The notes: generated by a model not told the origin, from the sequence alone. Positions 7,577 to 61,333 are shown, counted from the stretch's first letter. The stretch: DNA of 64,000 bases from an uncultured Flavobacterium sp. (GCA_963511725.1 CAUPKA010000006.1:7265-71264); one strand, 5' to 3'. Numbers and translations: made by a program.

Positions 7577-7718
7577 TAACCCGTTGTGTGAAATTATCAA
7601 AAAAGAGCAATATCTGATGTTTTGTCATTCTGACGAAGGAGGAATCACAAAATCGTTAAGATTAACTATAAAAAAACATAAGTTTTAATCATTAAATATA
7701 ATTTCACCCAACTGGTTA
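7577..7718. mobile_element. MITE family A, copy 1 (internal hairpin half deleted)
   Basis: 21-bp TIR taacccgttgtgtgaaattat / ataatttcacccaactggtta (2 mismatches); 5-bp TSD aattt; nearly identical to 12213-12396. Confidence 0.75.
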
Positions 7719-7771
7719 AATTTCAATAAAGTAGTATCATAATTATCTAAAAAGCTGCCTGAGCGATAGCG

Positions 7772-7914
7772 TAATTTCAGTAAATCAAGCTTTAATTATT
7801 CTCGCGAAGGTGCAAAGACGCAAAATTTAGAACCGATTTCTTTGTGACTTCGAGTTTTTGCGAGAGCTAGATTTTTAAAAAACTTAGAGAGAAATTCTTG
7901 GTCTAATGACATTG
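7772..7914. mobile_element. MITE family B, degenerate copy
   Basis: Ends match the 18-bp TIR of 59375-59549 at 13/18 and 14/18; 10-bp TSD agcgatagcg / agctttagcg (8/10). Confidence 0.55.
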
Positions 7915-8030
7915 AGCTTTAGCGAACAGGCGAAGCAAATCTTTTTGTTCTCCAAATAATTGTCGAACTTAGATTGAAGTGAAAATAATAATATTCCGCT
8001 AATTCGCATTAGAAAACCGTAAAAGTTCAC

Positions 8031-16733: not shown

Positions 16734-16774
16734 ACAAACACGTTGCATACCAATTTTGGGTTTTTAAAAACCAG

Positions 16775-16893
16775 TTGGGCGTGCCACCATAAAGCGAAGG
16801 GACTAAATCACTCCATGGTGATTTAGTCCCTTCGCTTTATGCTGTCGGGCCATCCGCGCTACTTCGGTAGCTTGCTTCTGTCCCTCACGCAAA
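16775..16893 (+). ncRNA. Flavo-1-like structured repeat element (a)
   Basis: ttgggcgtgccac start; perfect 24-bp inner hairpin (16788-16841); core gtcgggccatccgcgctacttcggtagcttgcttc shared with 59360-59665; the Flavo-1 match is from memory, not a search. Confidence 0.5.
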
Positions 16894-20749: not shown

Positions 20750-20868
20750 TTGGGCATTTTTTGGTTATATGGGTCCTGCTCTCCACTATATTCCCGATTA
20801 ACAAAAACTACGGCAAAAAAAGCCTTGTTTTTCTAAATCGGGAGATGCCGTTTCGATCAGGGCTAAAA
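20750..20868 (+). ncRNA. Flavo-1-like structured repeat element (b)
   Basis: ttgggcatttt...cctgctctcc...[hairpin]...ttcgatcagggctaaaag, homologous to 45570-45657. Confidence 0.5.
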
Positions 20869-44008: not shown

Positions 44009-44592
44009 GAACCATTAAGAGATTAAGAAAAATTAAGTTTTGTATTTATAAAAGCAACCTTAATTAACTTAATATCTTAATGGTGAAAAAAAATCTTAAG
44101 TGGTAAAAAAAGAAAAAAGTTCTATGACAAAAAAAGAGGTTACTCAATTGGCTTATGAAATTACAGGTTTTGCTATTAAAGTGCATAAAGCATTAGGACC
44201 TGGACTTTTAGAAAGCATTTATGAGCAATGCCTTAAATATGAATTAGAACAAAATGGATACGATGTTAAACAACAATTAGTTGTTAAAATAGATTATTAT
44301 GACCTTGAATTAGAATCTGATTTAAGAATTGATTTACTTGTGAATGATTGCATAGTTGTTGAATTAAAAGCGATAGAAAACCTTTTGCCAATTCACGAAG
44401 CACAATTACTTACGTATATGAAATTATTACAAAGACCTCAAGGTTTATTACTTAATTTTAACACTTTAAACATAACAAAATCAATGAAACCGCTTGTAAA
44501 CGAGTTTTTTTCAAGACTACAAGATTAATTTTCTTTTATCTCTTAAAAAACTTCAGACACAACCTTAATGAACCTTAATATCTTAATGGTTC
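44009..44592. mobile_element. Putative GxxExxY element with 19-bp terminal inverted repeats
   Basis: gaaccattaagagattaag (44009-44027) versus cttaatatcttaatggttc (44574-44592), 18/19 match; extra internal arm at 44056-44090. Confidence 0.55.
44124..44528 (+). CDS. GxxExxY family PD-(D/E)XK nuclease-like protein
   Basis: LGPGLLESIY (GxxExxY), RIDLLV...VELKA, QLLTY, GLLLNF. Confidence 0.92.
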   Translation: MTKKEVTQLAYEITGFAIKVHKALGPGLLESIYEQCLKYELEQNGYDVKQQLVVKIDYYDLELESDLRIDLLVNDCIVVELKAIENLLPIHEAQLLTYMKLLQRPQGLLLNFNTLNITKSMKPLVNEFFSRLQD

Positions 44593-44631
44593 AAAAAAGA
44601 AAAACCAAAATCTTGATTTTAAAAACATAAA

Positions 44632-52136: not shown

Positions 52137-52267
52137 TTTAGGAGCTAATCCCGCTATCCGTTGCAAACGAAGTTCACTGAACTCCGCTTAAAATGAAAGT
52201 TAAGTGAAGTAATCTTTTTATTTTTAAAGGAAAAATAAAAAGGATTTTCACTTCTATCGGGGCTAGG
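52137..52267 (+). ncRNA. Flavo-1-like structured repeat element (d)
   Basis: tttaggagctaatcccgctatccgttgc...ggattttcacttctatcggggctagg. Confidence 0.5.
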
Positions 52268-52282
52268 AAATTCAGGATAAAT

Positions 52283-57450: not shown

Positions 57451-58890
57451 ATGGTATTAAGTAGATTCTGGTTAGTCATTTTTATTTCATCGATTGTCTT
57501 TATTGTTGTCAGTTTGTTTACTGCCAATACCTATACCATTGATTATGTCTTGAATGGAAAAAAAGACGACCCAGTTTTGATTTCTGAAAAATATATTGAA
57601 CAAGTTCCTGCTTTTATCAAAGACAGCATCAAGAAAGCAACGGATCAAACGATGATTATCAATCGTGACACGCTAAATGCGGACACGACTTATGTTTATA
57701 AAAATAAAACCGTAAAAATTTTCAGCGGTGTTCAAAAATCGGACGGTTTATTGCCAACGTGCAAAAACACGTTGCTCGATTTGATTTTGCCACTTATGGC
57801 ATATTTGGCTTTTTTCTGTGGATTGATGGAGCTTTTAATCATTTCTGGAGCCTCTGGGAAATTGGCTAAATTGTTGAGCCCAGTATTTGTAAAAGTGTTC
57901 CCAAGCATCCCAAAAGATCATCCGTCGATCTCCTACATGACTTTAAACTTTGCTGCTAATTTCTTGGGATTGGATTCTGCAGCCACACCATTTGGACTAA
58001 AAGCCATGGAAAGCTTACAAGAAATAAATCCCGATAAAGACAAGGCGAGTGATGCCCAGATTATGTTTATGTGCTTGCATGCTTCGGGACTAACATTAAT
58101 TGCAACTTCTATTATTGGTTATCGAGCTGCCGCTAATGCAACAAACCCTGCCGATGTAATGCTGCCTTGCATTATTACTTCTTTTATTGGTACAATTGCC
58201 GCTTTTTTAATTGTTGGAATTAGACAAAAAATTAATTTTAAGAGTGCATCTTTGGTTGTGGTTTTAATTGGATTAATAGCTGCCATAGTTGGTTTGTTAA
58301 TGTATGTTAACCATTTGGACTTAATCGGAAAAAACTATTTTACATCAAATCTTTCGGCTTTAATATTGGTCGGAATTATTGCTTTCACATTGATATTCTC
58401 CTTCATTAAAGAGAAAAAATTTACCGAGGCTAAAACCACAGTTTTCGAAGCTTTTGTATCAGGGGCCAATAATGGAGTTAAAACAGGAGTTACTATTTTT
58501 CCTTATGTTTTAGGGATGTTAGTGGCGATTTCTTTATTCAGAAACAGTGGGTTGTTTGAAATTATCAGTGAAAAAATTGCTTTTGTTTTTTCGAATATGG
58601 GCGTCAATAAACAAATTACGGATGCTTTACCTGTTGCACTGCTTAGACCGTTTAGTTCTGCAGGATCAAGAGGATTTTTGATTGATTCGATGAATACTTT
58701 TGGTGCCGATTCAATGACGGGAAGGTTAAGCAGTATTTTTCAATGCAGCGCCGAAAGCACTTTTTATGTGATTGCCGTTTACTTTGGTTCGGTAAATATC
58801 AAAAATACCCGATACGCTTTAGGAACAATGCTTTTGGTTGATGTGATCTGTGTGATTACGGCCATTTTTGTGGCAAGCTGGTTTTTCTAG
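57451..58890 (+). CDS. SpmA/SpmB-like nucleoside recognition (gate) membrane protein
   Basis: N..AN.LGL.SAATP.GLKAM, LRPFSSAGS, ESTFYV.AVYFG. Confidence 0.85.
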   Translation: MVLSRFWLVIFISSIVFIVVSLFTANTYTIDYVLNGKKDDPVLISEKYIEQVPAFIKDSIKKATDQTMIINRDTLNADTTYVYKNKTVKIFSGVQKSDGLLPTCKNTLLDLILPLMAYLAFFCGLMELLIISGASGKLAKLLSPVFVKVFPSIPKDHPSISYMTLNFAANFLGLDSAATPFGLKAMESLQEINPDKDKASDAQIMFMCLHASGLTLIATSIIGYRAAANATNPADVMLPCIITSFIGTIAAFLIVGIRQKINFKSASLVVVLIGLIAAIVGLLMYVNHLDLIGKNYFTSNLSALILVGIIAFTLIFSFIKEKKFTEAKTTVFEAFVSGANNGVKTGVTIFPYVLGMLVAISLFRNSGLFEIISEKIAFVFSNMGVNKQITDALPVALLRPFSSAGSRGFLIDSMNTFGADSMTGRLSSIFQCSAESTFYVIAVYFGSVNIKNTRYALGTMLLVDVICVITAIFVASWFF

Positions 58891-59359: not shown

Positions 59360-59665
59360 GAGGCTGGGTGAGGGCAATGTCATTAAGTTAAGGATTAAAT
59401 AACAAAATGATTACTGATTTTTGATTAACGATTTTTGATTTCAGATGTAATAGACCTCGTAAAATCGACAATCTAATATTTAGCAACACCAAATCTGAAA
59501 TCAAAAATCGTTAATCCTCAATCTAAAATCTCTTAACTTAATGACATTGTGGGTGAGGGATGGAAGCAAGCTACCGAAGTAGCGCGTACAGCCCGACAGC
59601 TACTAGAGAAAGCGGCCCTGACGACAAAGCAGCTAGCCGTTTTCTCTAGTAGGTGGCACCTCCAA
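59360..59665 (-). ncRNA. Flavo-1-like element (e), interrupted by MITE B and overlapping the sulP 3' end
   Basis: Reverse complement reads ttggaggtgccac...gctgtcgggctgtacgcgctacttcggtagcttgcttccatccctcacc, homologous to 16775-16893. Confidence 0.5.
59375..59549. mobile_element. MITE family B, intact copy
   Basis: Perfect 18-bp TIR caatgtcattaagttaag / cttaacttaatgacattg; perfect 10-bp TSD tgggtgaggg (59365-59374 and 59550-59559). Confidence 0.9.
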
Positions 59666-61333
59666 ATTAGAATTGATGGCACTTACAACTAAATCATCAA
59701 CAGAAACGCTTCGGCTGATGTGACCTAAAAGAGCCTCCAAATTTTCGGAGCGTAACGCGTCACGAACTTCGGATCTGGCTTCGGCAATTTTTAACGAAAT
59801 ATTTCTAGATTTCAAATCAATAAACAGCTGTTTCAAAAAGCGAGCGCCAGTAATATCAATACGTGGAGAGGAATTGAGGTCTAATATTACCGCTTTGACC
59901 GAATTGGACTCACTATTAATTTTCTCCCATATTTGCTCTTTGATATATTCAGTATTAAAATAAAATATCGAAGATTCTATTCTAACAATCAATATTCCTT
60001 TAATGTTTTCGTTATCGGAATGACGTTGTATATCTGTATAGCGTTTGGTTCCGGGTATTCTGCCCAAAAATGCGACATGTGGAGCAGAAGTTGCTTTTAT
60101 TAGCAATAACAAAGTGATTATAGCGGCTAATAAAACGCCTGTTAGGATTCCCCAAATGAGTACTCCAACCAATGCAATCATTGCGATATAGAATTCTTGT
60201 TTGTTTATTCGGTAGAGGTGTTTGATTTCTTCTAGGTCAAAAAGCCCTCGAATAGCCACCAATACAATGGATGCCAAAATTACAGTAGGCAAGTTTTGAA
60301 GAAATCCCGTTAAAAACAATAAACAAAAAGCAATTGCAATTGATGCAAACGCTAAGGATATTGTTGTTTTTGCTCCTGCAGTATCATTTACGGCAGACTG
60401 AGATAATCCTCCAGCTACGGGATAGCCTTGCCCAAAAGCTACAGCGGCATTGGCTACTCCAAGAGCTAATAATTCTTGATGAGGGTCAATGGTATATCCG
60501 TTTTTTTGTGCTAATGTTCTTGCTGCTGAAACACTCTCGATATAAGACAATAAAAAACAAGCCAAGGCGAGAGGAAGTACTCCATCTACATCTTTAATAC
60601 GCAATGCTGGCATGTGAAATTGAGGAAGTCCTGTTGGGATTTCGCCTACGGTTGAAAAACCTTGATGAGCTAAGGATGTTGTTGAAATTAGTAGAATGGA
60701 CAAGGTCACAATTAGTATTGCGATTGGTTTTCCAGGCAGCATTTTTTCGCCAACGATTAGAATGACAATCGCAGCAATACCAAAAAGCAAAACAGCCGTA
60801 TTTGTATCGGGAAGTTGCTGAAAAAGGATAATAATACGGTCTAGAAAGTTAGCACCGCCTCCTTTTACGCCAAAAATTTTGGGCAATTGTGTTAGGCCAA
60901 TGGTTATGGCGGCACCCGCTTTGAAGCCAACCAAAACGGTTTCACTGATAAAATTAATAATGCCGCTCAATCGCAAGATGTAAGCAAGTATAGCTAAGAC
61001 TGAAAACACTAAAGCTGTGAGGGAGGCAATATCGACCCAGCGCTGTACATCACCGTTAGCCATAGTGGCAATTGTGGTCCCAATCAATAATGAAATTGCC
61101 GATGTGGGGCCAATGGCCAATTGTTTGCTGGTTCCCAATAAAGCATAAAAAATACCGCCAATGAGGTAGCCATAAATTCCATATTGAGGCGGTAATCCTG
61201 CAAGAGTTGCATAAGCCATCGATACAGGAATTCCATAAGCAGCCAATGTTATTCCGGCTATAAAGTCTTTTTTTAAGTCTTTTTTTTTGTATTCTTTAAT
61301 CCAGATTGCAATTGGGAATAGTCTAGAAATCAT
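59633..61333 (-). CDS. SulP family anion transporter with STAS domain
   Basis: DFIAG.T....IP.SMAYA.LAGLPP.YG, QEL.A.G.AN, STAS (DLNSS..ID.TG). Confidence 0.93.
   Translation of the reverse strand: MISRLFPIAIWIKEYKKKDLKKDFIAGITLAAYGIPVSMAYATLAGLPPQYGIYGYLIGGIFYALLGTSKQLAIGPTSAISLLIGTTIATMANGDVQRWVDIASLTALVFSVLAILAYILRLSGIINFISETVLVGFKAGAAITIGLTQLPKIFGVKGGGANFLDRIIILFQQLPDTNTAVLLFGIAAIVILIVGEKMLPGKPIAILIVTLSILLISTTSLAHQGFSTVGEIPTGLPQFHMPALRIKDVDGVLPLALACFLLSYIESVSAARTLAQKNGYTIDPHQELLALGVANAAVAFGQGYPVAGGLSQSAVNDTAGAKTTISLAFASIAIAFCLLFLTGFLQNLPTVILASIVLVAIRGLFDLEEIKHLYRINKQEFYIAMIALVGVLIWGILTGVLLAAIITLLLLIKATSAPHVAFLGRIPGTKRYTDIQRHSDNENIKGILIVRIESSIFYFNTEYIKEQIWEKINSESNSVKAVILDLNSSPRIDITGARFLKQLFIDLKSRNISLKIAEARSEVRDALRSENLEALLGHISRSVSVDDLVVSAINSNLEVPPTRENG

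Follow-up and report, generated by a model that had tools for sequence, protein, structure and literature searches.

The window, by which we mean the whole stretch of 64,000 nucleotides analysed here, corresponds to C6:7265-71264 of a draft Flavobacterium genome of 4.67 Mb (70 contigs, 33.8% G+C). Between two convergent genes it holds an intergenic region in which a structured repeat, referred to below as the host repeat (HR), carries an inserted MITE at its 5' end. The features of this region, together with related elements elsewhere in the window, are compiled in Table 1.

Table 1. Features of the window that bear on the inserted element, its host repeat and their relatives
Feature	Position	Strand	Remark
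28-bp mini-repeat, left half (GCCTGAGCGATAGCG...)	7757..7771	+	split by the element at 7772
Decayed family member, type C MITE, different periodic hairpin	7772..7914	.	ends 13/18 and 14/18 against the TIR
28-bp mini-repeat, right half (AGCTTTAGCGAACAGGCGAAGCA)	7915..7937		split by the element at 7772
Intact, unoccupied HR copy	16773..16893	-	129.8 bits; no Rfam match
Genuine Flavo-1 (RF01705)	20768..20868	-	HR model gives no match
Upstream gene of the convergent pair bounding the intergenic region	57451..58890	+	
Left TSD copy TGGGTGAGGG	59365..59374	+	direct repeat, 100%; original 5' end of HR, now cut off from the remainder
175-bp MITE, type A, no ORF	59375..59549	.	
Left TIR CAATGTCATTAAGTTAAG	59375..59392	+	same sequence as at either end of the 1463-bp IS, C5:100738-102200
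Left heptad arm (GATTACT GATTTTT GATTAAC GATTTTT GATTTCA GAT)	59409..59446	+	perfect 24-bp core 59423-59446
Right heptad arm, inverted partner of the left	59493..59530	-	perfect core 59493-59516
Right TIR	59532..59549	-	perfect complement of the left TIR
Host HR copy, full length	59548..59667	+	covariance model 110.5 bits, model positions 1-122
Right TSD copy	59550..59559	+	now 5' strand of the HR outer stem
Long variable hairpin P3 of the host HR	59597..59655	+	
Downstream convergent gene, SulP sulfate transporter with STAS domain	59633..61333	-	last codons overlap the HR 3' end

The two TIR copies are complementary at 18/18 positions and are the only matches to this sequence in the window at up to three mismatches (2 found, 0.10 expected from shuffles). 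The perfect 10-bp TSD flanks the MITE directly on both sides. Direct reading and a repeat search agree on the 175-bp element, its perfect 18-bp TIR and its perfect 10-bp TSD, all of which the first-pass annotation of this DNA had described. It had also placed an inverted pair of 26 bp in the interior; the pair is present, with a perfect core of 24 bp rather than 26. The interior is an inverted pair of arms composed of 7-bp units; each arm measures 38 nt overall, with 84% complementarity between the two. As single-stranded DNA, the MITE folds with z = -9.4 relative to shuffles. Two copies elsewhere resemble it closely, C53:17270-17444 at 98.9% identity and C2:263018-263199 at 95.6%. The properties expected of a bacterial MITE were found together: a non-coding length of 175 bp, TIRs equal to the ends of an IS, a 10-bp TSD and about 35 family members with recognisable ends. 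Kinship to the repeat arms of a nuclease gene (44009-44597), with which ATTAAG units are shared, was considered and dropped, as those arms are otherwise unlike the TIR. The empty site is expected to read GAGGC-TGGGTGAGGG-ATGGAAGC, without the 185 extra bases. Such an allele was not found among the relatives, which are represented by one genome per species and are non-syntenic across the gap; an exact-protein lookup of the upstream gene returned nothing, and the sole public contig with the downstream gene is identical, occupied and ends inside the MITE.

A search for a transposase bearing this TIR, as had been proposed, led to an autonomous partner IS on another contig of the same genome, at C5:100738-102200. 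This IS is 1463 bp long, has the same perfect ends and the TSD CGCGTGAGGG, and is filled by a single ORF of 442 aa with no frameshift. The encoded transposase matches Pfam DDE_Tnp_1 (5.9e-20) and NCBIfam NF033592 transpos_IS4_1 (172.8 bits, cut-off 115); IS701 models score far below their cut-offs. The IS4 family is defined by a D(60-110)D(100-150)E triad, a Y-(2)-R-(3)-E-(6)-K signature, a single ORF and a TSD of about one helical turn (PMC2266710). Each of these was found in the C5 element, along with the profile score over cut-off: the triad is D128, D203 and E311, separated by 74 and 107 residues, the Y(2)R(3)E(6)K signature spans residues 304-318 (YFLRWGIETYYDELK), the TSD is about 10 bp, and the residues of both triad and signature are invariant among 29 homologues. 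Members of the IS4 subgroup measure 1400-1650 bp, generate TSDs of 10-13 bp and have ends of the form -AATR--------WTW (PMC2266710); positions 2-5 of CAATGTCATTAAGTTAAG are AATG and positions 14-16 are TTA. On these sequence features, we assign the C5 IS to the IS4 family and, by its size, 10-bp TSD and end pattern, to the IS4 subgroup. The IS4-compatible DDE transposase that had been postulated from the MITE was therefore found in the same genome, with exactly the same TIR and a 10-bp TSD. Homologues of the C5 transposase are common and are annotated as 'IS4 family transposase' in several Flavobacterium species, and the related IS copies of F. luteum and further species combine these ends with perfect 10-bp TSDs. 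With phmmer, the transposase matched no PDB sequence at E values up to 1, and an AlphaFold model based on 29 homologues was set aside, its mean pLDDT of 56.7 being too low for use.

The 18-bp TIR is present in the genome in 21 exact copies and in 46 copies with up to two mismatches. When these ends are paired, the resulting elements measure 97-206 bp, apart from a single one of 1463 bp, and BLAST recovers one full IS copy only. Perfect 10-bp TSDs flank the window copy on C6, C2:263018-263199, C5:100738-102200, C29:30774-30906 and C53:17270-17444, and near-perfect TSDs flank several further family copies. By their interiors, which are unrelated to one another, the MITEs bounded by these ends can be divided into at least four types. 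Across the genus, the TIR was detected in 38 of 151 genomes (reversed-pattern control, 0-1). The second family member reported within the window, at 7772, could be upheld: it does carry a different cargo, a hairpin of the third subtype, and it splits a 28-bp mini-repeat, although the copy is old and decayed. Its TSD (7762-7771 / 7915-7924; AGCGATAGCG / AGCTTTAGCG) matches at 7/10 positions, and its membership is backed by two related copies that end in good TIRs (C6:130050-130173 and C29:5073-5159). The motif GTCATTCTGACGAAGGAGGAATC with its inverted partner forms the interior of type B MITEs (C4:197-329, C29:30774-30906, C50:583-715) and also occurs alone in the window at 7625-7650. In L014, a metagenome-assembled Flavobacterium contig, the two flanks of a full-length IS are inverted copies of one another, with no direct TSD; this IS probably entered a palindromic element and was rearranged afterwards.

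The interior of type A MITEs comprises two heptad-periodic arms around a 46-bp centre and almost nothing else, and about 20 type A copies carry this heptad hairpin. At up to three mismatches, the 23-nt arm core has 99 copies in the genome (control, 0), of which 69 lie apart from any TIR. Independent inverted arm pairs number about ten. The arm pair at C23:31073-31544 encloses a 119-aa ORF of PF05635, the 23S rRNA intervening-sequence protein family (40 bits, cut-off 33.8). Because the arms also exist independently, the passenger reading holds: the MITE interior is a gene-less heptad-armed hairpin of an independent family that has been amplified as a passenger. The idea that the transposon ferries other repeat classes is likewise borne out by the MITE subfamilies, which hold different repeat classes between the same ends. 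Nesting also runs the other way, with the 28-bp mini-repeat GAGCGATAGCGAACAGGCGAAGC lying inside some type A and type B MITEs (C3:44539, C13:65536, C17:1223, C20:72564, C23:60342), so that the mini-repeat (27-28 bp) and the MITEs invade each other. In another species, a sequence resembling the MITE interior occurs at least five times in head-to-tail order at G013:C23:133956-134814, at intervals of about 204 bp; the TIR has no match in that genome.

The repeat that received the MITE is a three-way junction of 122 nt. Once the MITE and one TSD copy are removed, the window locus and that of the IS both read gCGTGAGGGATAGAAGC..GCTACCGAAGTAGCGCGGATAGCCCGAC, a long variable hairpin and GGTCACGCCC. 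An alignment of 22 copies contains 36 base pairs, 26 of which show compensatory changes, and the outer stem of the host copy in the window is itself a compensatory variant, GGGUG / CACCU. The covariance model built from this alignment identifies 37 copies in the genome (36 with nhmmer), which total about 5.5 kb, or 0.12% of the genome and about 0.9% of the sequence outside long ORFs, a crude measure of non-coding space. Within the window, it matches only the occupied and the intact copies listed in Table 1, and within the genus it matches in 43 of 61 genomes, with at least 56 copies in one of them. The TSD TGGGTGAGGG supplies the 5' strand of the HR outer stem and the first GGG of the second stem; the partner of this TSD sequence in the window copy is a compensating CACCUCC at the 3' end. 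The occupied HR is still full length, at 110.5 bits, because the TSD restores its 5' strand.

The TSD had been interpreted as the conserved end of a Flavo-1-like element. This stands insofar as the TSD is the 5' outer-stem strand of HR; HR itself is not Flavo-1, and the likeness is one of architecture alone. A scan of the occupied and intact HR copies with the Rfam (15) families, at E values up to 10, returned no family, Flavo-1 included, and only chance hairpins of microRNA type. Since HR has no Rfam match and the HR model misses the true Flavo-1, HR is not a Flavo-1 (RF01705) member; neither covariance model finds the other family, and this identification was rejected. The two repeats have in common the loop motifs GAU-GAAGC and GUAGCG-A-AGC, a GGG/CCC closing stem and a very high copy number in the genome, and some HR variants have a variable hairpin at the position where Flavo-1 has one. 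However, HR differs by an extra outer stem and a long third hairpin. Among 150 scored candidates, true Flavo-1 has at least 115 copies over the gathering score in this genome, where it acts as a dispersed repeat rather than as a single-copy sRNA gene; its function is not known (PMC9723704). Furthermore, sub-threshold Flavo-1 matches of about 125 nt (33-42 bits) occur in the window at 52143-52268 on the minus strand (C6:59407-59532) and at five other loci, and these long matches may represent a third related repeat class. In 24 of the 36 HR copies, an opposite-strand gene has its stop codon 0-160 bp, mostly less than 40 bp, from the HR 3' end. Judging by G-U pairs, the modelled strand is the more likely RNA strand. 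If transcribed, HR would read toward the end of the convergent gene. We regard HR as a candidate for an undescribed structured RNA or REP-like element; in the literature searched, we found no description of HR or of the Flavobacterium IS/MITE family.

The distribution of insertions in this genome reveals a clear concentration on HR. About 12 of the approximately 35 family members with recognisable ends lie in or adjoin HR, both counts resting on manual curation of a draft assembly in 70 contigs. Even insertion would give about 0.04-0.4 HR hits, and the enrichment is still about 30-fold against non-coding DNA alone. The positions are fixed. Site a, immediately after GCGTGAGGG, is used by the window copy, the IS itself and C50:734, and site b, after GGATAGAAGC, is used by C2:243564, two tandem copies on C4, C24:6316, C28:51974, C50:715 and C56. 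One further insertion is at the HR 3' end (C2:288316) and another lies 16 bp upstream of an HR copy (C42:1474). Other palindromic or repeated sequences are also hit. The 28-bp mini-repeat (16 copies; control, 0) contains the 7772 element, C44:12011 and C2:263018; a true Flavo-1 copy has received the MITE C23:60342-60501 in its 5' end, and the insertion at C7:23155 sits in a hairpin-ended element. Additionally, perfect 20-bp hairpins CCTCCAGCTTTAGCTGGAGG, which form inverted pairs about 100 bp apart (C2:282804/282908, C3:138142/138243, C7:159742/159843, C6:154099/154204, C18:68399/68501), are also a MITE target, and these pairs look like the ends of yet another small element. The enrichment over collected insertions that had been put forward as a check thus shows non-random targets, and the suggested preference for palindromic repeats is corroborated by the fixed HR positions and their recurrence in other species, with part of the bias attributable to a plain GC-rich consensus. 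Purifying selection against insertions in genes must add to this bias. The accompanying idea that palindromic repeats serve as safe havens concerns a benefit and is putative.

The same positions recur beyond this genome. Many of the 52 elements fetched from eight other species have perfect 10-bp TSDs, and several lie at HR site b (four G050 loci, G113 and G134). The site-b junction of GGATAGAAGC with CAATGTCATTAAGTT, allowing up to three mismatches, was detected 47 times in 18 of 301 species genomes (reversed control, 1), and the site-a junction was detected in 20 of 35 TIR-bearing genomes. At twelve fetched site-a loci, perfect or 9/10 TSDs of (C/T)GCGTGAGGG precede HR copies with different hairpins, and the resident MITEs measure 96, 133, 160 or 175 bp. 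Given that both the hairpins and the MITEs differ, these are independent events and not one copied composite. Independent insertions at the same repeat position, far above chance, are what characterises REP targeting, and they were found here. The HR target bias is real: its junctions recur in other Flavobacterium species at different HR copies.

With high confidence, we therefore view the window element as a MITE of an IS4-family IS whose target choice is non-random, comprising consensus sites and HR sites, whose TSD rebuilds HR and whose interior is a passenger. The 35 sites with good TSDs yield a symmetric GC-rich consensus, approximately nGCKC|GMGCn, and a PWM was built from the 26 non-HR sites only. 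Under this PWM, the HR 3' end ranks first of the 112 positions in HR and site a ranks third, at the 99.67th percentile genome-wide. Site b ranks 14th of 112, at the 97.7th percentile. A single sequence PWM for both HR hot spots was thus rejected, as it fits site a and the 3' end and fails site b.

These figures bear directly on the reading in which the element is a MITE of the C5 IS but its association with repeats is a by-product, the transposase preferring GC-rich palindromic 10-mers and insertions outside dispensable repeats being purged. In a genome of 34% GC, most of the dispensable DNA that offers such sites consists of structured repeats, the consensus at non-HR sites is indeed symmetric and GC-rich, site a and the HR 3' end fall within the top 0.2-0.4% of genome positions, and G112 and G119 use CGCG-type sites outside HR. 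However, the score of site a is reached by about 0.3% of genome positions and that of site b by 2.3%, which amounts to tens of thousands of equal-scoring sites, and yet about 40 HR copies take roughly one-third of the insertions. Moreover, the most used position is site b, with its 47 junctions in 18 species and its poor fit to the consensus, and the 30-fold enrichment persists when non-coding DNA alone is considered. On balance, we judge the by-product explanation improbable. Because tens of thousands of positions score equally, the local 10-mer contributes to target choice but cannot account for the concentration on HR, and there is evidence for an extra determinant, be it wider sequence context, DNA structure or a bound protein. 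In its boldest form, which we put forward as speculative and doubtful, HR would be a functional structured element and the transposase would find folded (cruciform or hairpin) DNA or an HR-bound protein rather than a local 10-mer. Recognition of a fold would explain both the preference for site b despite its poor consensus fit and the fact that HR is left intact at site a.

Target choice also bears on the question of which enzyme moved the MITEs. The IS and the MITEs have about 18-20 bp per end in common and nothing further, and some genomes may hold MITEs without the IS; the MITEs might accordingly be moved, now or formerly, by a different transposase, the C5 IS being a relative with common ends. 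Against this, both ends are identical at 18/18 positions, the TSD length is the same, the IS and the MITEs insert at a common hot spot, these ends occur on no other element of the genome, and the C5 ORF is intact with invariant catalytic residues, so we consider a different transposase very unlikely. A further reading is that HR-MITE junctions arose once or a few times and then multiplied with the copying of HR, itself multi-copy and present with 13 similar site-a junctions in G289; the junctions would in that case say nothing about the target choice of the transposase. This reading has hardly any probability left, because occupied HRs vary both in the variable hairpin and in the 10-mer that was duplicated (CGCGTGAGGG, TGGGTGAGGG, TGCGTGAGGG, CGCGTGAGTG, GGATAGACGG, GGACGGAAGC and others) and house residents ranging from the four MITE lengths given above to the 1463-bp IS.

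The preferred reading, a MITE mobilised by the C5 IS into consensus and HR sites, can be set out as a series of steps. The C5 transposase would bind the shared 18-bp ends and move the MITE in trans, by cut-and-paste if it behaves like the studied members of the IS4 family; because just 18-20 bp per end are in common, we infer this mobilisation. Staggered cuts 10 bp apart in the target, once repaired, produce the 10-bp TSD. The preferred target is a symmetric GC-rich 10-mer and, beyond it, the fixed positions at the HR 5' end, sites a and b. Insertion at site a leaves the host repeat intact, its 5' strand being rebuilt by the TSD. Each insertion may regenerate its own target and give rise to tandem MITE arrays spaced by the 10-mer. 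Tandem MITEs spaced by exactly the 10-mer do occur, with three in a row in L025 (G119:C3:52713-53361) and further cases at C4:47-329 (186/197), at C50:583-909, in G050 and in L043, and this exact spacing fits an insertion that regenerates its own target. Subsequent recombination between neighbouring copies would leave MITEs with repeat stubs and no TSD. HR stubs on both sides without a matching TSD are seen at C2:243397-243564, C24, C50:734-909 and C56, and the C7 copy lies between two half-hairpins. As several HR-associated copies have no matching TSD, secondary rearrangement is needed, and the best account of the stub-flanked copies and the C7 copy is a pair of nearby insertions that subsequently recombined with each other.

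These results have practical value. They pair an active-looking IS with its MITEs in Flavobacterium and define the ends, the TSD length and, in part, the target rule, which helps annotation; they also explain why Flavobacterium draft assemblies break at these sites. In addition, they provide a Bacteroidota case of repeat-homing transposons with hot spots defined to the nucleotide. The main finding leaves the understanding of transposons unchanged. HR, which is widespread, strongly covarying and absent from Rfam, may be the more interesting object.

Several features of the family can be placed alongside known systems. Among elements with IS4-family transposases, the target preference of IS10/Tn10 is NGCTNAGCN and that of IS231A is GGG(N)5CCC. 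The present family resembles both in having a symmetric GC-anchored consensus that spans the duplicated bases, and it differs from them in the 10-mer itself and in a second class of sites, GGATAGAAGC, that does not fit. As in the IS4 subgroup, the C5 element lies within the 1400-1650-bp size range and shows the single ORF, the DDE spacing, the YREK signature, the end consensus and a TSD within 10-13 bp. Some members of that subgroup exhibit a striking conservation of target arms, and the text of the IS4 family survey does not mention Bacteroidetes (PMC2266710).

ISs that home to intergenic palindromic repeats are documented in five families, examples being IS1397, ISKpn1, IS621, ISPpu9/10 and ISRm22; the last, an IS4-family element of Sinorhizobium meliloti, has all its copies in REPs, and its imperfect TSDs were ascribed to recombination between copies (PMC1525189). 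Given that repeat-targeting ISs, ISRm22 included, are already known, the MITE family described here is a clean but fairly ordinary case. It is like ISRm22 and the other REP-targeting ISs in that a DDE IS inserts at a fixed position in GC-rich palindromic intergenic repeats with a palindromic target consensus, and like ISRm22 in that imperfect duplications are explained by recombination between copies. Unlike the REP-targeting ISs, however, its host is a 122-nt three-way junction of Flavobacterium rather than a 20-40-bp REP, and most of its copies are MITEs, not full ISs. Whereas all ISRm22 copies are in REPs, about one-third of the insertions here are in HR, where they use two or three sites; the TSD measures 10 bp, compared with the 6 bp reported for ISRm22 (PMC1525189). 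Regarding the passenger, a Porphyromonas gingivalis MITE carries an internal minisatellite as its passenger (PMC4596501). As in that MITE and in MIC231 cassettes, transposon ends bracket an unrelated passenger and the two are amplified together; the passengers here are non-coding repeats of other families instead of genes or a minisatellite.
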